From assembly GCA_002011125.2 (NCBI GenBank), contig MTMF02000018.1, forward strand, positions 1 through 37,034: DNA of 37,034 bases, in the 5' to 3' direction. The notes under the pieces were generated by a model. It was not told where the DNA came from. It worked only from the letters and a program-made list of their open reading frames with translations, and searched no databases. Shown here one piece after another: positions 1-37,034 of the stretch; positions within the stretch are counted from its first letter, which is position 1, and each line of letters starts with the position of its first letter. The translations under genes and the position numbers were made by a program. Source of the stretch: Candidatus Hydrothermarchaeum profundi. GTDB taxonomy: Archaea > Hydrothermarchaeota > Hydrothermarchaeia > Hydrothermarchaeales > Hydrothermarchaeaceae.

Positions 1-14
1 CTTTTTTTTTTTTT
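1..14 (+). repeat. Left inverted terminal repeat C(T)13
   Basis: Exact reverse complement of 37021-37034. Confidence 0.75.
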
Positions 15-16921: not shown

Positions 16922-17459
16922 TATGTTTCACCTCCTCAGCAGCTTTAACTCTATCTTCTAATTCTGCTCTAACCTCATTAAGTAAAACAACCAACTCATC
17001 AGTCGATATTTCAGATAAATTTAAAGTAGGTGGCTCATTACCCTTTTGCTCAGCAATTTTATCAATCGGACTTTTAGTACTATCTACAATATTTTTTAGT
17101 AAACTTACAACAAGACTATCTAATTCTTTATCTATACCAGATTCGTCACCACGAAGTGCATCCCTAACCTCTTTTAGCTCTGTAACAATATCTTTAAGAC
17201 TTCTCTTGTTTCTCATAGCATGTACGTTCAACCTACTTTCGAGTATCTCTTCCATAAGCGGTGAAACGTCTGACTCAGAAACCTCTTTTAGAAGTCTATA
17301 AGCATACAATCCCATAACTGTAGATGGCTCTTCACCGTTCTCCTTACACATTTGAACAAAAACCTTATACATCGGTAGATTTTTCATCTTACCTACTTCA
17401 ACTAGTCTTTCACCAGCTGTTGCTATTAGCATTCCATCTTCGTAGTCCATATCACTCAC
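16683..17459 (-). CDS. Helical protein with acidic tail overlapping next gene
   Basis: 258 aa; last ~80 codons overlap 16514..16921. Confidence 0.7.
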   Translation of the reverse strand: MSDMDYEDGMLIATAGERLVEVGKMKNLPMYKVFVQMCKENGEEPSTVMGLYAYRLLKEVSESDVSPLMEEILESRLNVHAMRNKRSLKDIVTELKEVRDALRGDESGIDKELDSLVVSLLKNIVDSTKSPIDKIAEQKGNEPPTLNLSEISTDELVVLLNEVRAELEDRVKAAEEVKHIDQEEVSTGESEGVHGDDGSDNVGGGQVVEDSEGDGDTEEYEELENVEVSDDSTREEADEGDDIRGKQDKDNTGSGNRY

Positions 17460-17663
17460 CTACCTATAACTGCAGTTTGAATATACAACATAATCCTCAT
17501 CTGTAAACGTACGCGTTGAAGCAGTTTGTGATTCCCACCGCTTCCAAGGTGTTATAGGGTCGACAATCCTAGGCCTGTAATAGTCTCTCTTCTCGTTATT
17601 AGCACACCTACCACATTTAATCGGGTAGCTAGTACACACATCTTTATACCTACACTTTACCAT
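17460..17663 (-). CDS. Small Cys-rich protein
   Basis: C..C..CGRC; GGTGA SD. Confidence 0.65.
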   Translation of the reverse strand: MVKCRYKDVCTSYPIKCGRCANNEKRDYYRPRIVDPITPWKRWESQTASTRTFTDEDYVVYSNCSYR

Positions 17664-17668
17664 TTATA

Positions 17669-17860
17669 TCACCCCATACTAGATATACTTATTGTCACAT
17701 ACGGTACAGGTTTTATCTCACCTGCACTACGACCACACCAAGGACATTTCTTAACCCCGATGGTCATTGGAGCAGTCATACTATATTGACAATAATCCAC
17801 GTCAAACTGGTCAAATTCTCCTCCACAACTTGGACACTTATACCTTGCCATCTTCATCAC
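17669..17860 (-). CDS. Zinc-ribbon protein
   Basis: CPSCGGEF...CPWCG. Confidence 0.75.
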   Translation of the reverse strand: MMKMARYKCPSCGGEFDQFDVDYCQYSMTAPMTIGVKKCPWCGRSAGEIKPVPYVTISISSMG

Positions 17861-18108
17861 CTCTCAACTTTTATATCTAAACGTTTTCTCATGACACCAG
17901 CCATACCTAAACCTCTCCTTGCTGCTCGTTCAATCTTACTTAAATCTTCTCTTGAGTTTGCCTTTATTTTCAAAACAACACTATTATCAAGCTTTATTAC
18001 CTCAACTTCTGTAACACCATACTCATCTCTCATCGTTGTACCTATCCACTGCATTATTCTATCCAGACCAACTAAATTAGCAAGACCTCTAATCATATCC
18101 CCTGCCAT
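17857..18108 (-). CDS. Hypothetical protein
   Basis: Operon packing. Confidence 0.7.
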   Translation of the reverse strand: MAGDMIRGLANLVGLDRIMQWIGTTMRDEYGVTEVEVIKLDNSVVLKIKANSREDLSKIERAARRGLGMAGVMRKRLDIKVER

Positions 18109-18227
18109 TTTTCCATCTCCTCATCAAGTTTTTTCCTTACAAATCTACTTAAGTTAATCGACCTATCAAGTATAAACTTTTCATGCTTCTTTTCGATTAA
18201 CACGCTTTTTTGTATCAGCCTTTTCAC
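18093..18227 (-). CDS. Ribbon-helix-helix DNA-binding protein
   Basis: QKSVLI...SINLSRFVRKKLDE; probable leaderless GTG (or ATG 18236). Confidence 0.75.
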   Translation of the reverse strand: MKRLIQKSVLIEKKHEKFILDRSINLSRFVRKKLDEEMEKWQGI

Positions 18228-18266
18228 ACTATACATGTATGTATAACATATATATATATGTTTCTC
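18228..18266 (-). promoter_or_regulatory. Promoter with TATACAT-N2-ATGTATA operator
   Basis: GAAAC-ATATATATA then palindrome 18230-18245. Confidence 0.55.
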
Positions 18267-18297
18267 CAGAGGACTTTTATAAATTAAAAAATATAAA

Positions 18298-19245
18298 TTA
18301 GGAAATTTTAATTCTTGCCCATATATGTTCGTATCCTGTAGCCTCATCTTCAGGTGTTAACATCGCTACTGCTCTTTCTTCGTCCCACCCAGCTTTATGG
18401 TATCGCGAAAAGTCAACCATGTATACAGTTCCATTGATTTCAACACTTCCCCAAATGTGACCATAGCCTTGCTTGAGTCCAAGATATAACCATACGTTAC
18501 TATATCCTTTCTCTACGAGTATGCGCACTACTAAAGGATTTATGTCATCACAATCTCCTCTCAACTCATTGTGTATAAAGTACGATGGGTTCTGGAACAC
18601 ATCTAACTTATAGAATTGCTCCCTGTCGTCCATATAGATAAATGTCACTTCTTTCCTAGTATCTTTGTATACCAACAAGTATGTTCCATCATCCTGTATT
18701 ACAAAGTCTACTACATTAACGAAGTCGGTGACTAATTGATGGTCTTCCATAAGGAACTTCTTGAATCCTCTTGCGTATTTCATGTAGTCTCCGTCCCAGC
18801 TAACAGGAAATCTCTTTAACTCTACACTATACTTTGACAAGTCTAAAGGTATTTTCTCTGGTTTATTTACTTCAGCTAATAACTCATCATACTTCTCAAC
18901 TAGCCATTGATTTTCCGTTAGTACATCGTTTAACTGTTGCTTAGTTGTATTTAGCTTTTCTTTTGCGTTGTTAAGCTCTAACCTTGTCTGCTCAAGAGTA
19001 ATACTTATCACGTCTATCCTGTTTCTCAGTTCTTGATTTTCTGCAGTCAAATTGTAGTTAATACGCTGTAACTCTACTATAGTTTGTCTGTAACTATTTA
19101 CTTCATCACTCAAGTTATAATAGTCGTACACTAGGTCATTATACTGCCTTACCAACTGGTAGTTTTCGTATGTAACATACACTACTAAAGACACTGCAAC
19201 CAGACACAACGCAATAAATACCTTAGTCCAGCTTTCTTCTTTCAC
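18298..19245 (-). CDS. TM + coiled-coil + transglutaminase-like protease
   Basis: N-terminal TM, ~100-aa heptads, GDCDD...GHIW...MVD triad. Confidence 0.8.
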   Translation of the reverse strand: MKEESWTKVFIALCLVAVSLVVYVTYENYQLVRQYNDLVYDYYNLSDEVNSYRQTIVELQRINYNLTAENQELRNRIDVISITLEQTRLELNNAKEKLNTTKQQLNDVLTENQWLVEKYDELLAEVNKPEKIPLDLSKYSVELKRFPVSWDGDYMKYARGFKKFLMEDHQLVTDFVNVVDFVIQDDGTYLLVYKDTRKEVTFIYMDDREQFYKLDVFQNPSYFIHNELRGDCDDINPLVVRILVEKGYSNVWLYLGLKQGYGHIWGSVEINGTVYMVDFSRYHKAGWDEERAVAMLTPEDEATGYEHIWARIKIS

Positions 19246-19487
19246 TCTATCACCCAGTACCTTTCTCCTATATTTGCTTTGTTAACTAACCATAACCCTC
19301 TTTTATGTGCAGTATCTACATCGTTGCTGTAAACAACCACAATGTAGTCAAACTCATTTATGTACTTTGACTCATATATCTTATACCTAAATGTATCGTC
19401 TTTCTCTGCAATCTCCATTAACTTCAGTGAAGCACTTTCGTAATCTTCTTCAAGTATACCTATACACGTTTTAGCCATATTAATCAC
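19242..19487 (-). CDS. Hypothetical protein
   Basis: Operon packing; likely start MAKT at 19478. Confidence 0.7.
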   Translation of the reverse strand: MINMAKTCIGILEEDYESASLKLMEIAEKDDTFRYKIYESKYINEFDYIVVVYSNDVDTAHKRGLWLVNKANIGERYWVIE

Positions 19488-19620
19488 CCTCGTTATCTAC
19501 CATACCGAAAAGAAATGCTCCAATAAGCCCACCAATAGCAACACCAATAGGTCCAGCAATCACACCACCAATAGCCATTCCAAATATCATACCAGCAAAA
19601 GCACTAGCCTCGTTCATCAT
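19480..19620 (-). CDS. 46-aa glycine-zipper membrane protein (not in ORF track)
   Basis: GMIFGMAIGGVIAGPIGVAIGGLIGAF. Confidence 0.7.
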   Translation of the reverse strand: MMNEASAFAGMIFGMAIGGVIAGPIGVAIGGLIGAFLFGMVDNEGD

Positions 19621-19855
19621 AAACACCTCTATATTTCTGTTGTAGTTTTAATGTACATTTATCACAAAAACCCTGTTGCTCATAGTACTCACAAAAATCG
19701 ATTTCTTCCATACACTCGTTACAGTACATAACCGGTAGTTTAAGCTTTCTAACAGCTCTTTTTATATCATCAGCTATATAGAAGTAATCACCAGTATCCC
19801 TAGACATTTCAAGTGCTTCCATCAACCTCATAGCTATACTAATACTAGTTTTCAT
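19604..19855 (-). CDS. Zinc-finger protein
   Basis: CNEC...CDKC; GGAGG SD. Confidence 0.7.
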   Translation of the reverse strand: MKTSISIAMRLMEALEMSRDTGDYFYIADDIKRAVRKLKLPVMYCNECMEEIDFCEYYEQQGFCDKCTLKLQQKYRGVYDERG

Positions 19856-19861
19856 CTAATA

Positions 19862-20233
19862 TCAATCCTCCTCAAGTATTGTAGGCATACCCAAACAATA
19901 CTCAACATCTTTTCTTACCTTCTCCCACTCCTCTTCTAAATGTGGTACATCTTCGTACGGCATTAATATCATTGCCCGGTTGTCTTTAAGTATACCAACT
20001 ACAATAGCTGTACCTTCTCACCTTGACTTACCAAGTAAATGAGTTGTCATATTTTTTCTCCCCTGAAAAGGTACTAACAATATACACCCACGTAAAGCAC
20101 TTCCATATAAAGACGTCTTTGTATTAATATGCACCGAAATTGGTCTAACGCCTTTCTCTAAAAACCTTGCAGTCTGTTCTACACTTAGCTCATACTTCAT
20201 ACACTTACCCAATATTTTTTTCAACCACCTCAT
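19862..20233 (-). pseudogene. ORF interrupted by one in-frame TGA (20018-20020)
   Basis: 71 codons, TGA, then 51 further open codons in same frame filling the gap. Confidence 0.4.
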
Positions 20234-20246
20234 TTTAACTCAACTC

Positions 20247-20390
20247 CTAAATCGGGATATTATACAACACTGGTACAGCATAAGCTCTAGGCTTACATCT
20301 TTTACCATCTCTTAATCGTATACATCCTATAATAGACGTACTATATCTACCTCGTCTAACCATAGCATAGCAGCAATTTAAACATATCAT
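20247..20390 (-). CDS. Small Cys-rich basic protein
   Basis: MICLNCCY...C...C; GGAGGTG SD. Confidence 0.5.
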   Translation of the reverse strand: MICLNCCYAMVRRGRYSTSIIGCIRLRDGKRCKPRAYAVPVLYNIPI

Positions 20391-20394
20391 CACA

Positions 20395-20799
20395 CTAACA
20401 CCTCCTCTTACCTTTTCTTGCTGGAAAGTTCCAGAATGGTAACCTAAACAGCCAGTCATCATCTAACCTTTCTCTACTATACCACTTACCATTTTTAAAT
20501 TTATAGTCGAACAGTACATCATCAACATAACCAGAAATCCTACTCCTCATCTCTGATAACTCCACTCTTGTTTGGTCATCTCCTAACGCTAGTCTATCAT
20601 ATATATCACTCTTAACTCCTCTAATAATGAGATGATACCCTCTATCAGTTTCATATACCTCCGGTACTTTACCAAACCTATGTATCATATTGAAATAGGT
20701 TTTAATCAACTTAAGTTGTGACTTATTATCCAAATCTATACCTATTTTATTAGATAAACACTCAAACCCATCTAACTTGCTTACCGAATCTCTTTTCAT
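20395..20799 (-). CDS. Minimal AEP (archaeo-eukaryotic primase)-like protein, 134 aa
   Basis: IGIDLD (motif I), ETDRGYHL (motif II), LGDD (candidate motif III); GGAGG SD. Confidence 0.65.
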   Translation of the reverse strand: MKRDSVSKLDGFECLSNKIGIDLDNKSQLKLIKTYFNMIHRFGKVPEVYETDRGYHLIIRGVKSDIYDRLALGDDQTRVELSEMRSRISGYVDDVLFDYKFKNGKWYSRERLDDDWLFRLPFWNFPARKGKRRC

Positions 20800-21496
20800 A
20801 TCCTGACCTCCTTGCCATTTTATTAAACTTTTTACAAGCAGTAGGATAATCATATAAATACTCTGAAGACAATTTAAACTCGTCGTACCATCTCCTTAAT
20901 TCAAGTTTTCTATTATCAGAACCATTATCCCATATCTCCATATACAGCGGAGCTTCCTCATACAGGTCCCAAAACTCATCATAGTCCATCCTTTCAAGCT
21001 CTTCTATACCTGAATACTTAAAATTGGCTGACTCAAGCATTGGAGTGTCATATCCTTTACTCTCTTGATATAAGTACATCAACCTAAGTATAAAATCACC
21101 CATATTATCTATGTCATCGCAAGTTAGTTCACTAATTTTATCAACATCGCCTGTTACACTTCTATCAGAAGGTACCCATATAATACTTCGTATTTCAAAA
21201 TACCTTCTCCTCCAGCTCTCACCAGTTGTAACTAACGATAGTGAAATTAAATATTTAACCATCTCAATTTCTGGTGGTGGAGGTACAACAGGTACAACTC
21301 TTTCGTATCTACCAGCTAGTACATCTCTATATATACTAAACGCTAAAGCTCTGGTTATTCCTAAATCACGCATCAATTTTTCAAATCTATATCCTGAAAT
21401 TTGTCCAGTAGCGTACCTGTATACAGTACGCTCTATATCTCTGAACTTACTTTCATCTACCTCATATCCAGATGAAAAAAACCTTATGACCGCCAC
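20762..21496 (-). CDS. Hypothetical two-domain protein overlapping the AEP-like gene
   Basis: Arg-rich helical N-domain, PVVPPPP linker, Tyr/acidic C-domain. Confidence 0.75.
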   Translation of the reverse strand: MAVIRFFSSGYEVDESKFRDIERTVYRYATGQISGYRFEKLMRDLGITRALAFSIYRDVLAGRYERVVPVVPPPPEIEMVKYLISLSLVTTGESWRRRYFEIRSIIWVPSDRSVTGDVDKISELTCDDIDNMGDFILRLMYLYQESKGYDTPMLESANFKYSGIEELERMDYDEFWDLYEEAPLYMEIWDNGSDNRKLELRRWYDEFKLSSEYLYDYPTACKKFNKMARRSGYEKRFGKQVRWV

Positions 21497-21732
21497 TAAC
21501 TACCACTCTCCTTAATACAGTAAATTACCGATAACGTATATACTACACCGTTTATACATAACACTACTAAACCAGCTACTATAAGCATTATTGGTATTGC
21601 AAGTACATAGTTACCTTTACTTATAACAACGTCTATAAAGTATATAGCAATCCACATGCCCGACAAACTAAGTAATATCAACATAATACCATAAACAAAT
21701 TCACCAAGTAAACTCAGCTTCACTTCATCCAC
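21496..21732 (-). CDS. 2-TM membrane protein
   Basis: Two long hydrophobic segments. Confidence 0.7.
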   Translation of the reverse strand: MDEVKLSLLGEFVYGIMLILLSLSGMWIAIYFIDVVISKGNYVLAIPIMLIVAGLVVLCINGVVYTLSVIYCIKESGS

Positions 21733-22556
21733 CTACCTAATCCTATATTACTAACAGCTTCAGATGGGTCGTAATTCATCCACAAGACCTCAGTAGCAGA
21801 ACGTCTTTCCTCTACAAGACTTGCCTTAACAGTAAAGTCTTTTTCTTCTACATACCAGTCAGACAGCATTTCGTCATACAACTGATTATGGTATCCCGAA
21901 ATCATCACCTTACCTTTAACACTCTTAACCACATTAATCATTCTTATGTGCTGATTAACTGTCATTTCGTGAACATAACCTTTACCACCGGTCCTTGAAC
22001 TCATAACGTACGGCGGGTCTAAATAGAAAAAAGTTTTCTTTGAGTCATACTTAGGTATTACTTCCTCGAAGCTCATATTCTCGATTATCACTGTCCTCAA
22101 TCTGTGTATGACTTCATACAGTCTATCTACCTTATTAGCCCATTTTAACGCTTTCCTATCCGTAGTAGATATTCCAAAAGTGTTTCCGAAAATGCCAGAA
22201 AATGACTGTTGTATTCCAACGAAAAACCTTCTTGCCCTTTCTATGTCGTCTCCTTCATCAGGATTAGTTTTTGCTTCAGTATGCTCATCTCTCGAATACG
22301 GTGTTAGTATCAACTGTTCTATTAGCTTCTCCCTCTTCTCTTCATCCCTTAACACTCTAAAGAAGTTTGCAACTCTTTTATCTATATCATTGTACACCTC
22401 AACCCTGCTTGGATACTTAGCAAATAGAAAAGCACCTGAACCACCGAACACTTCTACGTAACAATCGTGCTCTGGCATATTCTCTATTAACCAATCAGTC
22501 ATATAGCTCTTTCCACCATAATACGTAAATGGTGGTTTTATACCAGTACTACTCAT
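21720..22556 (-). CDS. DNA adenine N6-methyltransferase, Dam/D12 family
   Basis: YYGGKS, VEVFGGSGA, EVYND, DPPY. Confidence 0.95.
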   Translation of the reverse strand: MSSTGIKPPFTYYGGKSYMTDWLIENMPEHDCYVEVFGGSGAFLFAKYPSRVEVYNDIDKRVANFFRVLRDEEKREKLIEQLILTPYSRDEHTEAKTNPDEGDDIERARRFFVGIQQSFSGIFGNTFGISTTDRKALKWANKVDRLYEVIHRLRTVIIENMSFEEVIPKYDSKKTFFYLDPPYVMSSRTGGKGYVHEMTVNQHIRMINVVKSVKGKVMISGYHNQLYDEMLSDWYVEEKDFTVKASLVEERRSATEVLWMNYDPSEAVSNIGLGRWMK

Positions 22557-22863
22557 TTAGGCTACCCCCATTCAAATATAACATGAACTTGTATCCATCG
22601 TACATCATAGCCATATTATACCACTTACCGTGCTCAAGATGCTTAATAGCTCGTTCTACCTCACGCCATGTCAACGCACTCCAATAACAACCACCAGACC
22701 TACGTAGACCACATATCGTACATATGTAGTCTTCTATAACTAGTCCATCGACTGTAAATTCGTCAATTTTAATCATAGTATACTTATCACACCTAGGACA
22801 GTACTCATCGCCAGTTTCTATTATGTCTAATATCCCTTCAAACTCTAAATCATTATCAGTCAT
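22549..22863 (-). CDS. Zinc-ribbon protein
   Basis: CPRC...CTICG. Confidence 0.7.
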   Translation of the reverse strand: MTDNDLEFEGILDIIETGDEYCPRCDKYTMIKIDEFTVDGLVIEDYICTICGLRRSGGCYWSALTWREVERAIKHLEHGKWYNMAMMYDGYKFMLYLNGGSLNE

Positions 22864-23405
22864 ACATCACACTCCTCCCTCACTTTACACCACTTACATT
22901 CCCAACTCCATCGTGGACTTTCCCAATACTCTATAAAAAGTTTAATATCGTCAGTTGTATATGGGTCTGTAACCTCGAACTCTCTATAACTGTATGGACT
23001 GAAATACCATATATATGCCTTCTCCTTGCCAAGTAACCACATATACATCCTCAGTTGCATTTTGTCGTGTTCTCTCGGTGAATCAGGTACCTTCAAAGTA
23101 GTCTTTACTTCTACTAAATCTCCATCGACTATATCTGGAGTACCTGCTATAGTATAGTTACCAGCTCTCTTTTTATAAACTTTTTTCCTTCCACCAAGTA
23201 TAGATTCTATACCTCTATCAACAAGTACACCCAATAACACTCTTGGCTCTTTTAGTGTTTCTTTTACACTTTCCTCTGTAACACCTAGTTCAGCTTTACG
23301 TTTACAGTAGCACAACTGCTTAGCATGTATACTATTTTCTGTCATTTCGTAGTCTTTTCTTACTACAGTATCCGTATATATATCTAAAAATTCATCAAGT
23401 CTCAT
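22860..23405 (-). CDS. cas4: Stand-alone Cas4-like PD-(D/E)xK nuclease
   Basis: YCKRK, GTPD...VEVKT, QLRMY, CKWCKVREEC Fe-S cysteines. Confidence 0.88.
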   Translation of the reverse strand: MRLDEFLDIYTDTVVRKDYEMTENSIHAKQLCYCKRKAELGVTEESVKETLKEPRVLLGVLVDRGIESILGGRKKVYKKRAGNYTIAGTPDIVDGDLVEVKTTLKVPDSPREHDKMQLRMYMWLLGKEKAYIWYFSPYSYREFEVTDPYTTDDIKLFIEYWESPRWSWECKWCKVREECDV

Positions 23406-23407
23406 TC
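23355..23407. repeat. 53-bp direct repeat (second copy 24108-24160)
   Basis: One mismatch; covers 5' end of cas4. Confidence 0.95.
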
Positions 23408-23713
23408 TTCATCCCTCAACGCTTTCTCAACTATAGTGTGCAAAGCATACATTTTATCGTCTGGAATACCTATTGTACATACTGGTACATCTTTATTTAC
23501 TAAACGACCAGACTTTTTTACCGTATCACATATTCTATAGTCTCCCGGATATACATGCAAACCCTCGTTTATAGCATACTTTATACAAGAAATAAAATTA
23601 GCTATATCCGACTCTCTCTCTGGGTATATCACTATTCGTTTACACAACCGTCTTATTACACTATCATCCTCTATAACATACTCCCAAATACTTTCAACCT
23701 CAAATACCTTCAT
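23402..23713 (-). CDS. Hypothetical protein
   Basis: ATGA coupling on both sides. Confidence 0.7.
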   Translation of the reverse strand: MKVFEVESIWEYVIEDDSVIRRLCKRIVIYPERESDIANFISCIKYAINEGLHVYPGDYRICDTVKKSGRLVNKDVPVCTIGIPDDKMYALHTIVEKALRDEE

Positions 23714-23866
23714 TCCTCTACCTCCTCATACAGTCTTACACCACACTTCTCGCAAAAGTTCATATACCTCTCGATTGGATGACCGTTAGGACATCTACTA
23801 GGTTCAACCTTTACAGCGTACATCATTGAACCACACTTGTAGCAATACCTATGCCTAATATATGTT
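23710..23866. repeat. 157-bp perfect direct repeat (second copy 24155-24311)
   Basis: Identical by eye, 445-bp offset. Confidence 0.95.
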
Positions 23867-24072
23867 TTATTACCACACTCAGGACATAGCCAATCGTATT
23901 TATCTTCTATATATATGCTCAATGCCATCATTAAAACACCCAGACTAATAGAAATAGCGAACACTAATCCGTTTTGCATGATACCACCTATAATAGCTCC
24001 TCCACCAAACGCCAATACTCCTAAACAAAATATAATGAATGGATGCCTCCACCACCAACTATTCCTAGTCAT
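23710..24072 (-). CDS. 2-TM protein with double zinc ribbon, copy B
   Basis: CPEC..CYKC..CPNGH..CEKC. Confidence 0.85.
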   Translation of the reverse strand: MTRNSWWWRHPFIIFCLGVLAFGGGAIIGGIMQNGLVFAISISLGVLMMALSIYIEDKYDWLCPECGNKTYIRHRYCYKCGSMMYAVKVEPSRCPNGHPIERYMNFCEKCGVRLYEEVEE

Positions 24073-24158
24073 TTTACGTCACCTCCTTCTATAATACTTA
24101 TCCACCATTTTCTTACTACAGTATCTGTATATATATCTAAAAATTCATCAAGTCTCAT
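24069..24158 (-). pseudogene. 29-codon remnant carrying the first 17 aa of Cas4
   Basis: MRLDEFLDIYTDTVVRK-WWISIIEGGDVK; ATGA-coupled at both ends. Confidence 0.7.
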
Positions 24159-24532
24159 TCCTCTACCTCCTCATACAGTCTTACACCACACTTCTCGCAA
24201 AAGTTCATATACCTCTCGATTGGATGACCGTTAGGACATCTACTAGGTTCAACCTTTACAGCGTACATCATTGAACCACACTTGTAGCAATACCTATGCC
24301 TAATATATGTTCTATAACCGCACTTAGGACATAGCCAATCGTATTCCATAACTATCCACGAAAACACAATGAACCCTCCTCCAATTAGCACCATTACAAC
24401 AAGTGGTATCATCGAGTTCTCTATACCACGCTTCTCAAGTACAAGACTTATAATAGTACCACTAGTAGCTAGCACTAATCCTATACAAAACACAATAGTC
24501 GGATGTCTCCACCACCAACTATTTCTAACCAT
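24155..24532 (-). CDS. 2-TM protein with double zinc ribbon, copy A
   Basis: Paralog of 23710..24072. Confidence 0.85.
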   Translation of the reverse strand: MVRNSWWWRHPTIVFCIGLVLATSGTIISLVLEKRGIENSMIPLVVMVLIGGGFIVFSWIVMEYDWLCPKCGYRTYIRHRYCYKCGSMMYAVKVEPSRCPNGHPIERYMNFCEKCGVRLYEEVEE

Positions 24533-24538
24533 TTTACA

Positions 24539-24673
24539 TCACCTCCTCCTGTAGTATTTATCCACCAACTCCCTCTGCCATTCACTCAAGTCTCCATATT
24601 TTAGTATTCTTGCTTTCAACAACTTATACAACCTTTTTGCTTCTTTTCTTTCGTCGTCAAATTCCAATACCAT
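24539..24673 (-). CDS. 44-aa basic protein (not in ORF track)
   Basis: GGAGGTG SD; MVLEFDDERKEAKRLY... Confidence 0.6.
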   Translation of the reverse strand: MVLEFDDERKEAKRLYKLLKARILKYGDLSEWQRELVDKYYRRR

Positions 24674-24699
24674 CCTTAACACCTCCTAAAACATTTTAC

Positions 24700-24876
24700 C
24701 TAGTCTAACAAATCACCTAAAGCACCAAGTAGCACACCCAACGGAAGTGCAATAAGTATAGATATAGACGCTATTAACCCGAAATACCTTGGAAACATAG
24801 ACACCATAGCATACACAAAAGACACATATCCTATAGCACCCATAAAAAACACAGCCAAACTTTTAACTAATCCCAT
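24700..24876 (-). CDS. 2-TM membrane protein
   Basis: GGAGG SD before MGLVKS. Confidence 0.65.
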   Translation of the reverse strand: MGLVKSLAVFFMGAIGYVSFVYAMVSMFPRYFGLIASISILIALPLGVLLGALGDLLD

Positions 24877-24878
24877 TT

Positions 24879-24989
24879 CTAATCCCTCCTTAACTTCCAA
24901 GTATATACCAAACCTGCAGACACTATTATAGCATACGCTACAACAAATACTAACATATATAACACTACTTCACTTACATCGTACACCAT
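24879..24989 (-). CDS. 36-aa single-TM peptide (not in ORF track)
   Basis: MVYDVSEVVLYMLVFVVAYAIIVSAGLVYTWKLRRD; fills gap. Confidence 0.5.
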   Translation of the reverse strand: MVYDVSEVVLYMLVFVVAYAIIVSAGLVYTWKLRRD

Positions 24990-24993
24990 AGTT

Positions 24994-26484
24994 TCAATTA
25001 TCATCCTCTACCACCTCCACCGCTTCTACAAACCAACTCGGAAACTGACTTTTATATCTAAACAAGAAACCAAAACTTTCATCAAGTATATACGTCTTAC
25101 ACCAATCGTCTTCAGCTCTAACACCTCTACCACAAGCCTGTACCAAATTTTTAATTGCTTGATACCTATACCAGTTCCACGCTTTCCTGTTATTTAGCAA
25201 CTCGTCTACTCTTATATCGTTTAAATCTGGATAAGGTACTTTTGTAATCACTACGTACCTACACATATCATATCTTAAATCAACACCTCTTTCAAATCCA
25301 ACTCCTATAAACACTCCACCGTCTCTAATCCACTCCTTAAACTTATCATTCCTATCAACTGAATTATGTGAAATATATTTAATATTCATCCAGTCAAGCT
25401 CTCTACATATACCTTCTTTCAGTTCATAACTATTGCAGTGTACTATTCCGTTATACCCTTCATTCTCTTTAACTATTTTAGCCACAACCTTTGCAATCTT
25501 ATTGTAGTTATCTTCTCTAACGTCTTTAGTCATCTTACATATAGGCATATAGTAAACTTTCCTATTCTCAACTGGAAATGTATGTGGTACCTTAATCATT
25601 ACCGTATCGTTTGCATCTAAACCCGTTGTTCTGCAAAACATTACTCTATCTATTATAGTAGCTGAACTAACTAACCTATATTCTCCTCTCGACCATATTA
25701 GCTCTTCAATTATCTGACCAGCGTTAACTGGCTTGACAATCAACCTTTTTCCATCTGAAGTAAATACCCAGTTTCTCTTATCTTCACTAACCTTATTTAT
25801 AAACGTAGTCAGTTTTATCTTATACTTAATTAGTTTATTTAAATCCCTTAAATCATCTCTACTAAGTTCATCCTTTTCCTCAATTTCTTTTATAACACCA
25901 CATACCTTCTTATAAGCAGCTTTAGCCCAAACTATAACATCATCAATATCATTAAACCTATTTTTTGTCCTAAACTTAAAGCTACCAAACTCTATTGCCC
26001 AATTTTCCAAATCATCACCTTCATCAACTATTAATAGTTCTCTGTCATCAAACCCTAATCCCTCCGGCACATACCTATCATATATCAAATACGCAAAACT
26101 CATAGCTGCTATAGTATGATACATAGCATCGTACTTCTTCCTCTTATATATACATTCCTCTACACATACATAATTCTTCTTCGTCATACATGGTCCTGTA
26201 GCACAACTTTTACTTTTGTCAGCAAGACATACATAATTACTCCTACCCTTAATAACCGCTATATCAAGTATTGGGTCACTTTCAATCTGATTAAGCAATG
26301 ATACCTGAGGAGTAGTATAAAATACACTACCCATATTCATAGTAAACCATTTAGCTATTACATAATTAACTATACTTTTACCAAATCCTGTAGGTGCATC
26401 AATTAACACGTTAGTATACCCATCTTCATATGCACCTATTACTTTCTGTACCACTTCTTTCTGGTACTTCCTCGGTTTAATCAT
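24994..26484 (-). CDS. SF2 helicase, XPD/Rad3/DinG family with Fe-S cluster
   Basis: PRKYQ, APTGFGKS, KGRSNYVC and Cys cluster, DEGD, SAT, KVPYP, QACGRGVR. Confidence 0.92.
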   Translation of the reverse strand: MIKPRKYQKEVVQKVIGAYEDGYTNVLIDAPTGFGKSIVNYVIAKWFTMNMGSVFYTTPQVSLLNQIESDPILDIAVIKGRSNYVCLADKSKSCATGPCMTKKNYVCVEECIYKRKKYDAMYHTIAAMSFAYLIYDRYVPEGLGFDDRELLIVDEGDDLENWAIEFGSFKFRTKNRFNDIDDVIVWAKAAYKKVCGVIKEIEEKDELSRDDLRDLNKLIKYKIKLTTFINKVSEDKRNWVFTSDGKRLIVKPVNAGQIIEELIWSRGEYRLVSSATIIDRVMFCRTTGLDANDTVMIKVPHTFPVENRKVYYMPICKMTKDVREDNYNKIAKVVAKIVKENEGYNGIVHCNSYELKEGICRELDWMNIKYISHNSVDRNDKFKEWIRDGGVFIGVGFERGVDLRYDMCRYVVITKVPYPDLNDIRVDELLNNRKAWNWYRYQAIKNLVQACGRGVRAEDDWCKTYILDESFGFLFRYKSQFPSWFVEAVEVVEDDN

Positions 26485-26693
26485 AAAGCATATCCCCTAT
26501 CTTCAACTAGCATATTATAAAACTTATCATACTCAGGCTTATTCTTACCGAAACAGCATACATTTCTTTTACCATTACTTTTATGTTCTACAATAATCCT
26601 AACATAACCCCTACCTCGTCTACGCCTCCACGTTAATATACCTTGTCTACCACACCTAGGACAATTAATCATTACTACCATTGTAATCACCAC
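26481..26693 (-). CDS. Zinc-finger protein
   Basis: CPRCG...H...C, Arg-rich. Confidence 0.7.
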   Translation of the reverse strand: MVITMVVMINCPRCGRQGILTWRRRRGRGYVRIIVEHKSNGKRNVCCFGKNKPEYDKFYNMLVEDRGYAL

Positions 26694-27399
26694 CGAACAT
26701 ACTTATAATTTCAACCAACTTTCGTGCCTCCTTTACACCTAAAAAACTTTTCAAATCTTTATCTTTAAGTTTATCACCATCGTATATCCAGTACCACATA
26801 ACTTTTCTTTTCAACGCCTCATAAAGATTACTAACGTATTCCTTAAACCTGTTCTCAACACCTTCAGATGGTATAAGTATAACCTCTGGCAATTTAACAC
26901 CTTCTACATCTTCTACTCTAGTTAGCCCAACTAAATAACACAACCTCAAACACTTTGAACGTGAAAACTCAATTTGTCTCACCAACACACTATTTACCCA
27001 TTCAATAAATTCCCAAGGTAGTCTCGACTGAAACATTCTATCACCAGAACTGAACTCAAATGACACACCTAAATCCTCTCCCATAGGAGCACTACTTATA
27101 ATCTCTAACCTATATAACAATGAATGTATTAAATCAATTTCTTTACCTGCTATATAATGATACAACCTACCTGCACCAAGTATACATACTTTCGAAAACG
27201 CCTTCCATTGAGGCATATTAAATGCACTTCCCAAACTTTTTAAAGAGTCGTATTCCATCCTAGATAACCCCCATATTTTAACGTTCTCCGTATCGCTCCT
27301 AGCTGTCATTTTGTCAAGTTTAGCATATATCACACCTAACTTTCCTCTCCTGCCATCTATCTCAAAGTCTTTCTTAAAATCTTTATACCAATTATCCAA
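26665..27399 (-). CDS. Hypothetical protein, possibly tandem RHH-like DNA binder
   Basis: TTG start after GGAGGT; two strand-helix-helix-like segments. Confidence 0.65.
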   Translation of the reverse strand: MDNWYKDFKKDFEIDGRRGKLGVIYAKLDKMTARSDTENVKIWGLSRMEYDSLKSLGSAFNMPQWKAFSKVCILGAGRLYHYIAGKEIDLIHSLLYRLEIISSAPMGEDLGVSFEFSSGDRMFQSRLPWEFIEWVNSVLVRQIEFSRSKCLRLCYLVGLTRVEDVEGVKLPEVILIPSEGVENRFKEYVSNLYEALKRKVMWYWIYDGDKLKDKDLKSFLGVKEARKLVEIISMFGGDYNGSND

Positions 27400-27497
27400 T
27401 ATAATTTACCTCCTCACGTTGTAGCTGAAAAAAACAATAGAAACATTTATATATCATGAACGATACACTACTCATCGTAGCCCTCCATTTTTATTTT

Positions 27498-27668
27498 TTA
27501 TGAAACACTATCCGATATTGGATATATCTCTATTTTATTATCATCTACCACAACTTTGACTTCTCCATTGATAGTACCATTAAACTGCTTCCTTACCCAC
27601 TTCGTTGGTATCAAAACAGAGACTCCACTCCCAGTCCTTTGAACTCTCTTTCTGTATATCTCCTGCAT
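27498..27668 (-). CDS. AbrB/SpoVT-like transcription regulator
   Basis: RKRVQRTGSGVSVLIPTKW...IEIYP; leaderless ATG ~25 nt after GAAAG-ATTTATATA. Confidence 0.8.
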   Translation of the reverse strand: MQEIYRKRVQRTGSGVSVLIPTKWVRKQFNGTINGEVKVVVDDNKIEIYPISDSVS

Positions 27669-27775
27669 AATAATGTATAATAACGAAGGAGATATATAAA
27701 TCTTTCGACAATCCATTTTTATATTAACACTCATATAAAATCACCATCTTTCTATATATATTAGATATAATATAT

Positions 27776-27819
27776 GTGTACCGGTGTACCGGTGTACCGT
27801 ATAGATACACCGGTACACC
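27776..27819. repeat. 3 x GTGTACCG plus 14-bp inverted repeat; candidate origin or operator
   Basis: GGTGTACCGGTGTA (27783-27796) / TACACCGGTACACC (27806-27819) in AT-rich gap. Confidence 0.8.
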
Positions 27820-27969
27820 ATTTTATTTTCATAATCTTATCAAATATAAATGAAATCATAGGCTCTATTTTAATAAATAAGGAAAATATTAAAATATTCG
27901 ACCACAATTTTTATTTCCAATATGCATTTAATATCACCCTAGTGTAAAAGTATAGTATTTATATTTACA

Positions 27970-28680
27970 TCACTCTACAACGACGTACGGAGCTATCATA
28001 CTTTTAACTTCAAACCTCTCATTACCTGATTCCATCAACATTGGTTTATCGTCAGCAAGATGCAGTGTAACTATGTCTCCAACAACACTACCTAAAGCCT
28101 GTTCTATTAATTTTATCCTATAAGTTGATTTTGCTTCTACCACCTCCTCCATCATTATATCGGTCCTTGGTAACGAAAACTCAATACTGTCATTCCTATC
28201 TCCACGAGCCCAAAATAATATACCCGTCTTATTTACATCTATATGAACAAACTCACTAAGTATGCTACATGCTCTAATAGCAAACCTCAACGACTCTGTA
28301 CTCATTGTAAACCTAGCATTAAGGTCAATACTTGGCATTTTCGGTACCTTAATATCCATAGCTAACAACTTACATGAATAACTTGCCTTCTTCGACTTTA
28401 TCCTAATCTCGTCTTTATCTACCTCAACGTCCAACTTACCTGTCATATGCTTTATACCGTCGCTAATCTTCGTACTATCTATACAAAACTCTCCTCTACC
28501 TTCACATTTGTCTGTCCTAGCACTAACCGTTACCATATACACCTTACCCGAGTCCACGACTGATGAATTTATATACAAACCGTCTACACTGACCTTAATA
28601 TCTCCAACATAGGTCGAGTGTATCACCTTAAAAAAATCAGCAAGTAACTTTCTACTTATACTAAACTTAATCATCTTCAT
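27970..28680 (-). CDS. pcn: PCNA sliding clamp
   Basis: 236 aa; VDSGKVYMV, DDKPMLM, C-terminal MIAP. Confidence 0.88.
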   Translation of the reverse strand: MKMIKFSISRKLLADFFKVIHSTYVGDIKVSVDGLYINSSVVDSGKVYMVTVSARTDKCEGRGEFCIDSTKISDGIKHMTGKLDVEVDKDEIRIKSKKASYSCKLLAMDIKVPKMPSIDLNARFTMSTESLRFAIRACSILSEFVHIDVNKTGILFWARGDRNDSIEFSLPRTDIMMEEVVEAKSTYRIKLIEQALGSVVGDIVTLHLADDKPMLMESGNERFEVKSMIAPYVVVE

Positions 28681-29098
28681 CCCACCCTTTTATCTTACTT
28701 ATGATATTCCTGAAATACATTCCAGACTTTATAGCATCGTCCATCATATCAAGCGCTCTCCATACAGCACCAATAAACGCACCAACATCTATAGCACTCA
28801 TAAGTGATATATTCGTCAGCTTAATAACAGCTATAGCCTTAAGCAACCTATCCGTCGTGTCTCCATCATCAATCCACTCTAAAAACTTATCAGCAGACTT
28901 TACAACGTCTATCTCCTTATCAGCACCTAGTCCGACAAACCCTCCAAACTCCTTGAAATACTTATCCATTTTCTCCATATACTCTTTTCTATCTATACCA
29001 AGTATATCGTATATCATATCAAACACCTTCTTCACCTCCCAACACTTCATCAATAAAGTTAAAATACGCTTCGTGGTTTTCATACCCAAAACTACCAA
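28667..29098 (-). CDS. Hypothetical helical protein (start uncertain)
   Basis: Operon packing. Confidence 0.65.
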   Translation of the reverse strand: MVVLGMKTTKRILTLLMKCWEVKKVFDMIYDILGIDRKEYMEKMDKYFKEFGGFVGLGADKEIDVVKSADKFLEWIDDGDTTDRLLKAIAVIKLTNISLMSAIDVGAFIGAVWRALDMMDDAIKSGMYFRNIISKIKGWDEDD

Positions 29099-29315
29099 GT
29101 ACCTTATAAGATACTTTAGCCACTAACACCTTCATCATTTCTCTACCATATTTATCTGCAAAGCGTAACAAATGGTAATGCTTCGGATAGTAACCACTAC
29201 CCAAGTTAGCACCTAGCTTATAATCTCCCTTCTTTATGTCATAACCACATATAGCACACGTCAAGTCCCTACGAGCTTTCATCACCCTGAACTCCATCCT
29301 CTTCACCTCTCTCAT
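29019..29315 (-). CDS. PARP-type zinc-finger-like protein
   Basis: KARRDLTCAICGYDIKKGD...YH. Confidence 0.6.
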   Translation of the reverse strand: MREVKRMEFRVMKARRDLTCAICGYDIKKGDYKLGANLGSGYYPKHYHLLRFADKYGREMMKVLVAKVSYKVLGSFGYENHEAYFNFIDEVLGGEEGV

Positions 29316-29613
29316 TCAACTCATCAGCTTTGAAAGCCTTATTGAAAGCCTTATACCAATCAAGTTCAGTCTCTTTCACTAACCTCATCACGACATCCCA
29401 TTCTTGCTCATACCTCGTAATATCCACTTTCGAAAGTTTCTTCAGAAAGTCAATGAACTCATCTACCTTTACCTCACCGTATAACTCAAGATTCAGCATC
29501 ACAACAGGTATCTCATCCTCATCTCTAACTGACATCCCTTTAATTCCTACATCCATACCATATACTCTAAAAGATATTGTCAAACCCTCATTCATTTTCT
29601 TCTTCACCTCCAA
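29269..29613 (-). CDS. Hypothetical protein
   Basis: Likely start MNEG after GGAGGTGA. Confidence 0.65.
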   Translation of the reverse strand: MEVKKKMNEGLTISFRVYGMDVGIKGMSVRDEDEIPVVMLNLELYGEVKVDEFIDFLKKLSKVDITRYEQEWDVVMRLVKETELDWYKAFNKAFKADELNERGEEDGVQGDESS

Positions 29614-29803
29614 ATAACCTCTTCTCCTGCTCCAGTATGAGCTTATACAAATCTTCCTCTAACTCACGTATATACCTAGCAGTCTCGACATACCCAGCAA
29701 CAGCAAGTAATTGCCCAGCTTTTGATAGTGTCGCAAGTCCCACAGTTGCAGTAACTAAACCAGCTACTTTTTTAGCAAATTCTTTATCAGTCATATATAC
29801 CAC
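29588..29803 (-). CDS. Hypothetical protein
   Basis: Operon packing. Confidence 0.65.
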   Translation of the reverse strand: MVYMTDKEFAKKVAGLVTATVGLATLSKAGQLLAVAGYVETARYIRELEEDLYKLILEQEKRLFGGEEENE

Positions 29804-29998
29804 CTACATATTTTTTAACTCCCATATCGCAAAGTCTGGTAAAGTTTTAACCTTTCCAATGAAATCACTAAACATCTCTTGACAAGCAGTAACTAAAGGA
29901 CAGAACCTAGTAAAGTCTACCTCTATATCATCCTGCAACTTCTTTTTCGCCCAATCGCAAAACTCTTTAACAGGACACTTATCACAATCAACCTTCAT
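29804..29998 (-). CDS. Small Cys-rich protein
   Basis: CDKCPVKEFC...CPL. Confidence 0.7.
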   Translation of the reverse strand: MKVDCDKCPVKEFCDWAKKKLQDDIEVDFTRFCPLVTACQEMFSDFIGKVKTLPDFAIWELKNM

Positions 29999-30197
29999 CT
30001 ACAATCCACCTCACCTTACCTTTTATTACTTTCTCCAATACCCTACCTATTATCTCTCTACCACAGTTTATACATACCACCATATAATCCCCGAAATGTA
30101 CATACCTATCAAAATCGTCAGCGTAGAACATTCCTCCAACAGCAACACCGTCTTTCACTACAACATTCCCACACTTCTTACATTTAATCCTCAACAA
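29988..30197 (-). CDS. Zinc-ribbon protein
   Basis: CKKCG...CINCG. Confidence 0.7.
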   Translation of the reverse strand: MLRIKCKKCGNVVVKDGVAVGGMFYADDFDRYVHFGDYMVVCINCGREIIGRVLEKVIKGKVRWIVDEG

Positions 30198-30255
30198 CCA
30201 CCACCTCTCTTACCCGCTATGCATTCTCCAAATCTTAACACGCTTAAAACTCACT

Positions 30256-30447
30256 TCAACCACCTGACCTAACAGCAAATACCACCGTGTTACTTGCAAC
30301 AAGATAACTGGCAATCACATCGTACTTCATCAGAACCTCAACAGCCTTTTTTATATCTTCCAGTTCTTCACGCTTAAAATTGCGTATAAGTCTAACACTT
30401 ACAACCAGCTTACTTCCGTCCGAACTTACATTAATTCTCCTATCCAT
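30256..30447 (-). CDS. Hypothetical protein
   Basis: GGAGGTGA SD directly after BHB element 1. Confidence 0.7.
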   Translation of the reverse strand: MDRRINVSSDGSKLVVSVRLIRNFKREELEDIKKAVEVLMKYDVIASYLVASNTVVFAVRSGG

Positions 30448-30462
30448 TTATATCACCTCCTT

Positions 30463-30624
30463 TAGAGCTCTCCCCCACTACCAGACGTACACTCATGCTG
30501 GAACGGGAGGATTTCGCAAACCACCACTATTAGTAAAGCTCACTGACTATCACTCTGGTACAATCATACACTGCGTGGTTCACGCCAGCACCAAGTATAC
30601 ATCTGATAGCGCTTAGGGGCTCTA
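30463..30624 (-). ncRNA. Structured RNA closed by a canonical BHB motif (element 1)
   Basis: UAGAGC-CCCU-AAG-19 bp stem ... stem-GGGG-AGA-GCUCUA; five G-U pairs that work only on the minus strand. Confidence 0.8.
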
Positions 30625-30885: not shown

Positions 30886-31099
30886 CTTTATCACCACCAT
30901 AAAACATATTAACCCTATACCTCCTCCAAAAAACCTCGAGTACAACCAAAGGACCAAATAGAACTATCATAGCACCCAATAACACCAGCAGTATTGACGA
31001 AACACCTAACCCGTATCCAACAATCATACCGCCGTATGTAAAGCAACACGAAACGCAAACAAACTCTGCATCACGTCTACTCAGACCCACTATCACCAC
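30851..31099 (-). CDS. 2-TM membrane protein
   Basis: Hydrophobic segments, basic tail. Confidence 0.6.
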   Translation of the reverse strand: MVIVGLSRRDAEFVCVSCCFTYGGMIVGYGLGVSSILLVLLGAMIVLFGPLVVLEVFWRRYRVNMFYGGDKDVGRKENKKKV

Positions 31100-31847
31100 C
31101 TACAAACATCTTAACCAGTAATTTATCTACCTCCTTTATCCTAGCATACACATCTTTACCCCTATTCTTTCTTATTATCCCGTACCACCTCTTCTCATTA
31201 TTGCTTATCTCAACTCCCATATCTATGATAGTATCGAACTTCCTGAAAACCGAACTCTCTAATCTTTCCCTTGTCTTAGTATCACCTATCGGATGACTAG
31301 TACATATAAAATTGTATCCCAAATCTACCATATCGTATATAACTTTCAGCAAATCATCGTATAACTTATTATACGACTGCCACGGCAGTGTAAACGTATC
31401 ACTATCCGTTATATTAAACACTTTCTCTCCTATAACATAGTAGCCCTGTGAAATAAACTTACCCTCAAGATACCTCCTATGTAGCTCCATCACCTCGTTA
31501 ACACTATCAAGTACAATCAGGTCAGCATCACTCTTTATAACTTTCTTATAAGCCTGTCTAAACCCACCTCTATACATTCCGTCATCCACTTTCTCTACCT
31601 TACCATCATACCTTGGAGTTATTACCATCGTAATATTAGCTAACGACTCATCACTAATCTTTCCTGACTCATACAACGCAATTATCTCCTTCTGAGTACC
31701 ATACTCAGGGTCAATATATATTACCTTATCTCCTCTCTCTGAACATTTAGATGCTACCATCAAAGCACAATGAGTCTTCCCAGTACCTGTATCTCCTCTC
31801 AACAACACCTTATACTTCAACTGCCTTCGTATCGAATCAATTTTCAT
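31077..31847 (-). CDS. RecA-superfamily ATPase, Sak4/AAA_24-like recombinase
   Basis: GDTGTGKT, YIDPEYG, LIVLDS, CTSH, KNR. Confidence 0.8.
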   Translation of the reverse strand: MKIDSIRRQLKYKVLLRGDTGTGKTHCALMVASKCSERGDKVIYIDPEYGTQKEIIALYESGKISDESLANITMVITPRYDGKVEKVDDGMYRGGFRQAYKKVIKSDADLIVLDSVNEVMELHRRYLEGKFISQGYYVIGEKVFNITDSDTFTLPWQSYNKLYDDLLKVIYDMVDLGYNFICTSHPIGDTKTRERLESSVFRKFDTIIDMGVEISNNEKRWYGIIRKNRGKDVYARIKEVDKLLVKMFVGGDSGSE

Positions 31848-31921
31848 CTAATACCTCCAACAGCTCATAATTACTAGCATAATTCCATCTCCAAACTTCT
31901 AACACTTCATCACACTTACAC

Positions 31922-32317: not shown

Positions 32318-32322
32318 ATTAT

Positions 32323-32409: not shown

Positions 32410-32410
32410 T

Positions 32411-32440
32411 AAAAAATAAAAGTCCAGCATTAGCTGGACT
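32411..32440 (-). terminator. Hairpin plus U-tract terminator
   Basis: 8-bp stem AGTCCAGC/GCTGGACT over the stop codon then TTTATTTTTT. Confidence 0.6.
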
Positions 32441-36845: not shown

Positions 36846-37020
36846 AAAAATAAGCTTCTCTATATCCAATAAATTAAATATCTATAACACATTATTAATA
36901 CTATCTATAAAACATCTCAAATATTTCACGCTGTTAAATCTTTCTTAATATAAAACTATCAAAATATTCATATTCCATAAAATAAAAAGATATAAGATTT
37001 TTTATAAGATTATTTTTATA

Positions 37021-37034
37021 AAAAAAAAAAAAAG
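37021..37034 (-). repeat. Right inverted terminal repeat (A)13G
   Basis: Reverse complement of 1-14; A-run is 14 long including 37020. Confidence 0.75.

Follow-up and report, generated by a model that had tools for sequence, protein, structure and literature searches.

In the superfamily that comprises the archaeo-eukaryotic primases (AEPs), PrimPol-type members (PF09250; pRN1 ORF904, RepB', CAPP and S-2L PrimPol) are encoded on mobile elements that lack a replicative polymerase of their own, and some of them have terminal transferase activity. In the protein-priming systems of phi29 and adenovirus, as in the Tap/Tpg pair of Streptomyces, a linear genome with an inverted terminal reiteration is combined with an enzyme and a partner protein that are made together. 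Linear genomes bearing inverted terminal repeats (ITRs) and terminal proteins, and no polymerase gene, are reported for the haloviruses SH1, PH1 and HHIV-2 in the relevant passages of PMC3622292, and replication of these haloviruses is termed 'possibly protein-primed' in passages of PMC3622292 and PMC12643093. Here we analyse a stretch of 37,034 bp (the window), which is the entire contig C18 of a 19-contig, 2.19-Mb archaeal assembly, and in it a pair of overlapping genes for a 134-aa AEP-like protein (the mini-AEP, P0001) and a 244-aa partner (P0002). The window resembles the protein-priming systems in its linear, inverted terminal reiteration-bearing appearance, in its co-produced enzyme-partner pair and in that relatives of the mini-AEP occur in viruses carrying terminal proteins, but it encodes no family-B polymerase and its catalytic protein belongs to another superfamily. 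We conclude from sequence comparison and predicted structures, the computational evidence on which this study is built, that the mini-AEP is a new, unannotated form within the AEP superfamily, namely a catalytic-lobe-only enzyme with a coupled partner.

The mini-AEP gene lies at 20395..20799 on the minus strand (coding 20398-20799, stop codon 20395-20397) and encodes a catalytic lobe with the motifs DxD (D22, D24), GYH (G54, H56) and LGDD (D74), contained in the segments IGIDLD (residues 19-24), ETDRGYH (50-56) and LGDD (72-75) of the translation. The frame itself is longer, a 152-aa open reading frame (ORF) at 20395-20853 (minus strand), whose internal ATG at 20799 opens the 134-aa form, 7 nt downstream of an AGGAGG. 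The partner gene occupies 20762..21496 on the same strand (coding 20765-21496, stop codon 20762-20764). Its product comprises a basic, helix-turn-helix (HTH)-like N-domain (residues 1-66, isoelectric point 9.5), a linker with five prolines (67-77) that is absent in most homologues, and an acidic docking domain (78-244, isoelectric point 4.8, 8.4% Tyr), with an invariant ESKGY and the C-terminus GKQVRW. At the coupling junction (20762..20812, minus strand) the two genes overlap by 38 nt, and the Shine-Dalgarno sequence AGGAGG (20807-20812) falls within the final codons of the partner. A first reading of the DNA (the original prediction) had named the three motifs, the 38-nt overlap and the make-up of the partner as a basic N-domain, Pro linker and Tyr-rich acidic domain, and all of these hold: the overlap follows from ATG 20799 and the partner stop at 20762-20764, the make-up from the composition, and the motifs are present in the translation and coincide with positions conserved in the family.

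This family is sizeable. An exhaustive profile-free search (E<=1e-3), with clustering at 50% identity, returned 121 representative relatives of P0001, mostly of 100-170 aa, and in an alignment of 113 mini-AEP relatives D24 and R69 were invariant, with D22, N37, G54, H56, D74, R78, F97 and K100 conserved in at least 90% of the sequences; because they are conserved across these relatives, the motifs of the original prediction are more than chance. The mini-AEP family is thus widespread yet unannotated, having neither a Pfam nor a PHROG model. No other AEP family was among the Pfam matches of the 113 members beyond the single one discussed below, and the gathering thresholds of Prim-Pol PF09250, DNA_primase_S PF01896 and LigD_Prim-Pol PF21686 were not reached. 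Searches of PDB sequences (phmmer and hmmsearch with P0001, with the mini-AEP family alignment A1 and with the alignment A4) gave best E values of 0.25-1.2, for unrelated proteins. Neither tblastn of P0001 and of the gene pair of locus L022 against a phage collection, nor scans of IMG/VR with P0001, A2 and A4, nor a scan of GTDB genome contigs with A4 found a relative, and A1 found none in 40 genomes related to the host (0/40). A HUH Rep identity was also considered and rejected, since the mini-AEP has no HUH motif and no conserved catalytic Tyr, and Rep and origin-binding domains rank under AEPs in the structural comparisons.

A single-sequence AlphaFold2 model of P0001 was poor (predicted local distance difference test, pLDDT, 47.7) and was superseded by an alignment-based model (pLDDT 85.7, predicted template-modelling score 0.76) of topology b-a-b-b-a-a-b-b-b, in which a strand carrying DxD is followed by a helix, a hairpin carrying GYH, two helices and three strands. 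IGIDLD lies on the strand at residues 18-23 and RGYH at the hairpin 47-60. When this model was compared with 48,161 chains by VIA-align, ranks 1-5 were all AEPs; the LigD polymerase domain 2fao_A scored Z 6.8 (root-mean-square deviation, rmsd, 4.3, 98 residues aligned), human PRIM1 5.7, Tetrahymena PriS 5.4, Sulfolobus solfataricus PriS (1zt2_A) 5.2 and the Methanocella non-homologous end-joining (NHEJ) polymerase 4.7, with CAPP, RepB', Prim-PolC, S-2L PrimPol and the ASFV PrimPol further down the ranking. A second structural look gave AEPs in all of rows 1-13, the best being human PriS 4bpw_A (Z 7.0, rmsd 2.9, 92 residues aligned), and 92-106 residues were aligned with the AEP chains of the top ranks. 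RNA-recognition motif (RRM)-like, ferredoxin-like and origin-binding domains were also among the structural matches, at Z ~4. In the ESM Atlas the nearest named cluster was the AEP-like PF24387 (0.93), and the structure rows included AEP-TOTE, LigD_Prim-Pol and Prim-Pol. Because the structural Z values were below 8, we added a sequence test, in which 23 Prim-Pol (PF09250) domains gathered from genomes were aligned by hhalign with A1. The match reached a probability of 83.6% (E 8e-6) and placed DxD on motif I and GxH on motif II, as opposed to at most 0.5% for 21 controls (the reversed alignment and 20 column-shuffled ones). Taken together, model and profile support the description of P0001 as an AEP-like unit of RRM-like beta-alpha-beta-beta-alpha-beta form that bears a DxD, one His and a third Asp. 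The AEP-like identity that had been claimed for the 134-aa protein, and the absence of any accessory or helicase domain from it, are in this way borne out by fold, profile and motifs: the modelled fold is AEP-like.

What P0001 represents is only part of the AEP fold. The structural alignments start at its DxD strand, but about 65-167 residues into the AEP chains, and since just 17 residues of P0001 precede that strand (the folded part comprising ~105 residues), the N-terminal AEP lobe is missing. To judge from the model, P0001 is a catalytic lobe derived from the AEP superfamily and not a canonical AEP domain. The label 'minimal AEP' therefore stands as to AEP-likeness and needs narrowing as to what is minimal, the protein being the catalytic lobe alone and probably in need of its partner. 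With PrimPol-type AEPs it shares motifs I (DxD) and II (GxH) in register and a catalytic-lobe fold that matches at Z 3.9-4.7, besides the location of its gene on an element without a replicative polymerase. Unlike them, it has no N-terminal lobe, PriCT or helicase domain and stays below Pfam thresholds; it is helical after the His, and its conserved R69/LGDD/R78 signature is unseen in Prim-Pol. Its best structural matches are the LigD polymerase domain and PriS (2fao_A 6.8, 4bpw_A 7.0, 1zt2_A 5.2). As is the case for PriS, the modelled mini-AEP appears to be heterodimeric with a non-catalytic subunit. That subunit is unlike PriL in having no Fe-S domain (a 4Fe-4S cluster needs four Cys, and of the Cys residues of P0002 C126 alone is invariant, with C221 near-invariant); no search revealed similarity of P0002 to PriL or PriX, or a Pfam or PDB sequence match. 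The difference from LigD systems is that no ligase or Ku was found among the 50 window ORFs scanned. Passages found in the AEP survey PMC5862659 mention no minimal or split AEP forms, and, going by those passages and by our text searches, a catalytic-lobe-only architecture with a separately encoded, coupled partner appears not to have been described.

Relatives of the mini-AEP are present in cultured archaeal viruses. A Foldseek search of predicted viral structures returned at the top AFV2 ORF116 (E 4.7e-4), a protein of HHIV-2 (2.2e-3) and proteins of SBFV viruses. We then scanned all ORFs of the AFV2, SBFV3, HHIV-2, SH1, HCIV-1, AFV1 and SNJ1 genomes with a hidden Markov model (HMM) of the mini-AEP family, which identified AFV2 ORF116 (record coordinates 29815-30165, locus L045, E 5.6e-17), SBFV3 ORF44-132 (26245-26643, L049, E 1.3e-16), HHIV-2 ORF30 (20755-21228, L046, E 7.7e-17), SH1 ORF41 (21085-21576, L047, E 1.8e-16) and HCIV-1 ORF36 (22088-22648, L051, E 3.7e-16). 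The table of the PH1 paper lists PH1 gp35 as the homologue of SH1 ORF41. AFV1 had no member at the sequence level by HMM, its ORF144 being just a weak structural row (E 0.057), and the circular, RepA-encoding SNJ1 had none at E<=1 in the 16,000 of 16,492 nt scanned. The five ORFs carry the same DxD, GxH and GDD motifs as P0001. Virion types and hosts differ among these viruses, and so do the neighbours of the gene: in SH1, HHIV-2 and HCIV-1 an upstream gene of ~400 aa runs 4 nt past the start of the mini-AEP, whereas in AFV2 and SBFV3 a gene of ~290 aa lies downstream, and neither has any detectable similarity to P0002. All seven named viral genomes with a sequence-level member are linear (AFV2, SBFV3, SH1, HHIV-2, HCIV-1, PH1 by the paper's table, and the window), and SH1, HHIV-2 and HCIV-1 are linear genomes with terminal proteins and without a polymerase gene. 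The original prediction would have been in difficulty had homologues sat mostly in circular genomes; those with a name sit in linear ones, and the circular SNJ1 has no member. No paper that gives a function to the mini-AEP ORFs of cultured archaeal viruses was found in text searches, and none on 'mini-AEP' or on AFV2 ORF116. As judged by sequence comparison, the membership of SH1 ORF41, HHIV-2 ORF30, HCIV-1 ORF36, AFV2 ORF116 and SBFV3 ORF44 in the mini-AEP family is new.

The partner is conserved along with the enzyme. A profile built from three homologues of P0002 retrieved 21 partner-family proteins, which share the HTH-like N-domain and the GKQVRW C-terminus and in which S87, R98, E101, C126, Y143, E145-Y149, M153, G163, R202, Y213 and W243 are invariant. 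In 17 of 17 metagenomic loci with a P0002 homologue, a mini-AEP homologue follows immediately downstream on the same strand, its start codon -2 to +14 nt from the partner stop and its Shine-Dalgarno sequence inside the conserved last codons of the partner. A programmed frameshift that would fuse the two genes was considered and rejected, because the frame offset varies among loci (1 or 2) and the starts sit at the partner stop; the arrangement is one of translational coupling. The partner's conserved C-terminal codons themselves encode the Shine-Dalgarno sequence of the mini-AEP (window 20800-20812, loci L006-L022), ...VRW being written as GTGAGGTGG in many loci, so part of the C-terminal conservation may be at the RNA level. 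In four long members of the mini-AEP family, the mini-AEP forms the C-terminal part. The N-part of one of these fused forms, P0051, aligns to columns 26-183 of the partner profile (158 columns; probability 70%, E 4e-5). In P0018 the partner motifs are weakly visible (E 0.055), and P0116 and P0083 gave nothing significant against the profile; one fused form carries a winged HTH (wHTH).

A model of the P0001-P0002 complex, computed with both alignments, reached an interface score (ipSAE) of 0.71 (0.71, 0.00 and 0.80 in the individual runs), compared with 0.00 for the best of three controls; that mark is attained by 58 of 80 solved complexes and by 2 of 110 mismatched pairs. In the complex the partner has a pLDDT of at least 63, and at least 10% of the contacts are shared between runs. 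According to the model, residues 83-119, 159-168 and 183-206 of the partner contact the N-tail (10-15), helix 77-89 and strand 95-106 of the mini-AEP, leaving the DxD/His face of the latter free. The modelling thus supports binding of P0001 to P0002, and the conserved coupled pair, the fused forms and the passing complex model together identify P0002 as the true partner of the mini-AEP, in line with the coupling of the 134-aa and 244-aa genes that had been noticed at the outset. No usable match to P0002 was found in the ESM Atlas. Judged by its sequence, a protein with an HTH-like N-domain and a docking domain, fused to the mini-AEP elsewhere, would fit a primase subunit at least as well as a terminal protein.

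The window has the look of a linear genome. At the left terminus (1..14, plus strand) a C is followed by T13, and at the right terminus (37020..37034, minus strand) a C is followed by T14, which together make a homopolymer ITR. T10 occurs in the window only at the termini, a count that none of 100 shuffles reached, and elsewhere in the 2.19-Mb assembly the only run of T or A of at least 11 is a single A11 on contig C9. The Logan contig of run X1, a second assembly of the same reads, covers window positions 3 to 37034. The contig termini therefore have the appearance of true physical ends that carry a homopolymer, which may be telomere-like or an artefact of tailing or adapters at true ends, and the terminal C/G could be an adapter residue. 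The scheme of the original prediction, in which dC and then oligo-dT are added, would depend on these assembled termini. Nearly all genes of the window lie on the minus strand, the longest ORF having 496 aa, and the GC skew, which lacks a switch point, is negative throughout and reaches -0.58 in the right half; this extreme strand bias and unswitched skew fit unidirectional replication or transcription from one end.

The replication genes around the pair, all on the minus strand, comprise a PCNA-like sliding clamp (27970..28680; PHROG 947, E 2.6e-10; Pfam PCNA_C, E 0.0012, below the cut-off) that we take as the probable recruiter of a host polymerase, a Rad3/XPD-type helicase (24994..26484) that is part of a conserved replication module, and a Cas4-like PD-(D/E)XK nuclease (22860..23405) and a Sak4-like AAA_24 ATPase (31077..31847) that are both kept in relatives. 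The 17 related loci are syntenic with the window across the Sak4-like ATPase, the Rad3-type helicase (50-58% identity), the Cas4-like nuclease, the gene pair and a probable structural block, and in their covered parts the frames of at least 400 aa other than helicase homologues include three DNA methylases. No PolB or pPolB (PF00136, PF03175) is encoded in the window, the sole match in the assembly being the host gene on contig C9, and no single-stranded-DNA-binding protein (SSB) was named by family searches of the 50 window ORFs scanned. Accordingly, the picture of a linear-looking genome with PCNA and a helicase and without a polymerase stands, and the 'SSB-like' gene that had been listed with it was not confirmed.

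Other genes of the window include a Dam-type methylase, two double-zinc-ribbon paralogues, three ConA-like/Laminin_G_3 genes and two transglutaminase-like genes. The paralogous double-zinc-ribbon genes are adjacent (23710-24072 and 24155-24532, minus strand), and both public assemblies of the runs fall apart into short contigs at just this place (23378-24311). The Laminin_G_3/ConA-like lectin genes stand in tandem at 8057-10133 (minus strand; E 3e-9 to 5e-17) and probably encode receptor-binding or fibre proteins. The transglutaminase-like (DUF553/Transglut_core) genes are at 1201-1743 and 18298-19245 (minus strand), the product of the latter combining a membrane helix at its N-terminus with a long coiled coil, and could specify lysis or cell-wall enzymes. 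Among the putative structural genes no capsid, portal or terminase was identified with Pfam, PHROG or PDB, the sole structural hint being 5wk1_X, 'Capsid Stabilizing Protein', at E 0.013. In the related locus L018 (11554-13767) an N6_N4_Mtase DNA methylase gene is split by an intein with a LAGLIDADG domain. As to provenance, contigs of run X2 ('marine metagenome', 2020, under another study code) show no listed letter difference from window positions 17035-37034 over the covered parts; the probable source run is a 'subsurface metagenome' of 2016. Because no CRISPR-spacer-like or att-like match emerged when the window was compared by blastn-short with the remaining 18 contigs (C1-C17, C19), the link to the host rests on the shared assembly.

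We propose, giving the idea an even chance, that P0001 and P0002 form a two-subunit de novo priming enzyme whose products are elongated by a host polymerase. P0002, read from one message with P0001, would be the obligate second subunit, with an HTH-like head and a domain that attaches through strand pairing to the rear of the catalytic lobe, and we infer that it may stand in for the lost N-terminal AEP lobe. The HTH domain would target the heterodimer, itself predicted from the complex model. The heterodimer would then synthesize a short primer de novo, the most plausible sites being the oligo(dA) tracts at the 3' termini or their vicinity, and a host replicative polymerase, kept in place by the viral PCNA, would take this primer over; unwinding and recombination would fall to the virus's own Rad3 helicase, Sak4-like ATPase and Cas4-like nuclease. 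Primer synthesis, its site of action and the hand-over are thus what we infer from the parts at hand.

A number of observations weigh against this proposal. The best single structural Z, 7.0, is under the tool's trust level of 8, and in the Foldseek check for an AEP palm that accompanied the original prediction the top rows against the PDB were mostly AEPs, but at E 0.2-1, with nothing at E<=1e-3. Neither P0001 nor P0002 has a match in Pfam or PHROGs (for P0001, no Pfam family at E<=0.1), and 1 of the 113 mini-AEP members matches an AEP Pfam model (PF23162 AEP_C962R, E 0.00099). D74 meets Prim-Pol motif III only in low-confidence extensions of the alignment and sits off-strand in the model, in the stretch that separates helix 66-71 from helix 76-89; the acidic residue of motif III could alternatively be D94, with which a strand begins. 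The (alpha-beta)2 lobe at the N-terminus of AEPs is absent from the P0001 polypeptide, and no similarity to Prim-Pol N-lobes was seen for the P0002 family (hhalign 0.18%). Among the three runs of the complex model, one came out at 0.00. The partner family was undetected outside this virus group, SH1 ORF42, HHIV-2 ORF31 and AFV2 ORF202 and ORF286b being dissimilar to it, and the termini of the window are known from assemblies, not as molecule ends. Finally, the occurrence of the mini-AEP family in terminal-protein-bearing viruses favours protein priming over de novo priming.

Protein priming without a family-B polymerase, the mechanism of the original prediction and the main rival, would start from a terminal protein, which would be P0002 in this virus and some other protein in viruses of the SH1 type. 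Opposite the 3' end the mini-AEP would attach the first deoxynucleoside monophosphate(s) to a Ser, Thr or Tyr of that protein, and a host polymerase would carry out the extension. We regard protein priming as unlikely, if well worth keeping in view. It draws on the members found in SH1, HHIV-2, HCIV-1 and PH1, with their linear genomes, ITRs and terminal proteins and no polymerase gene, on the contrast within Halopanivirales between these linear genomes and the circular, RepA-encoding SNJ1 without a member, and on the reiterated terminal bases of the window, which would permit sliding-back. P0002 moreover binds P0001 in the model and has S87, Y143, S146, Y149 and Y213 invariant, although such residues alone are no proof; binding and fusion suit a subunit as well as a substrate, and the N-domain of the partner resembles a DNA-binding HTH, another fused form having a wHTH. 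P0002 has no detectable relative in the viruses that bear terminal proteins, nor any similarity in Pfam, the terminal-protein families included, and no AEP is known to us that primes from a protein hydroxyl. Extended to all groups concerned, the idea would make the mini-AEP, as an AEP-derived nucleotidyltransferase, the missing initiator of polymerase-less archaeal viruses whose linear genomes would have protein-capped or masked ends (the sphaerolipoviruses SH1, PH1, HHIV-2 and HCIV-1, the deltalipothrixviruses and the window group), charging a protein, here P0002, with the first nucleotides opposite a reiterated 3' end and passing the product to the host polymerase on the viral PCNA; this is a tentative generalization that we also hold to be unlikely. 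If true, protein-primed replication was invented a second time, on a primase scaffold rather than a family-B polymerase.

Other roles for the enzyme are less probable still. AEP domains occur in NHEJ (LigD), CRISPR-associated and conflict systems, and the mini-AEP gene adjoins a Dam-type methylase and the Cas4-like nuclease, which would suit a non-replicative function in repair or end joining, translesion synthesis or counter-defence; this we consider improbable, as in all relatives the gene belongs to the conserved module with helicase, ATPase and nuclease, no ligase or Ku is among the scanned ORFs, and the genome is otherwise without an initiator, primase or polymerase. The homopolymer ends in turn suggest a transferase that adds or restores the 3' tracts and so counters end erosion in a telomere-like manner, by terminal transfer or slippage, with the host primase doing the ordinary priming: long T/A runs are confined to both termini but for one A11, the tracts differ in length (13 vs 14), and among the structural matches polymerase domains of the LigD type rank first or second. 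Such end maintenance strikes us as very improbable, because the other named member viruses have ordinary termini (the AFV2 ends are no homopolymer, and the ITRs of the SH1 type are ~300 bp) and because library preparation or assembly could have produced the tracts artificially at true ends. The least probable of the explanations is convergence, whereby a small RRM-like protein that binds DNA or RNA would have acquired acidic and His motifs similar to those of AEPs. In its favour are the Z values below 8, the RRM-like, ferredoxin-like and origin-binding domains at Z ~4 and the lack of a Pfam match; AEPs nevertheless take the top ranks among 48,161 chains, the profile match sets both motifs in register and lies far above its controls, and DxD, H and D are near-invariant in 113 sequences.

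The mini-AEP pair is thus a candidate replication initiator for a polymerase-less linear 37-kb virus and its metagenomic relatives. The mini-AEP marks several groups of linear, polymerase-less archaeal viruses and provides a concrete candidate for their open replication problem, and, because SH1 can be grown and transfected, the start of halovirus DNA synthesis becomes directly testable with one gene pair (ORF41/ORF42).

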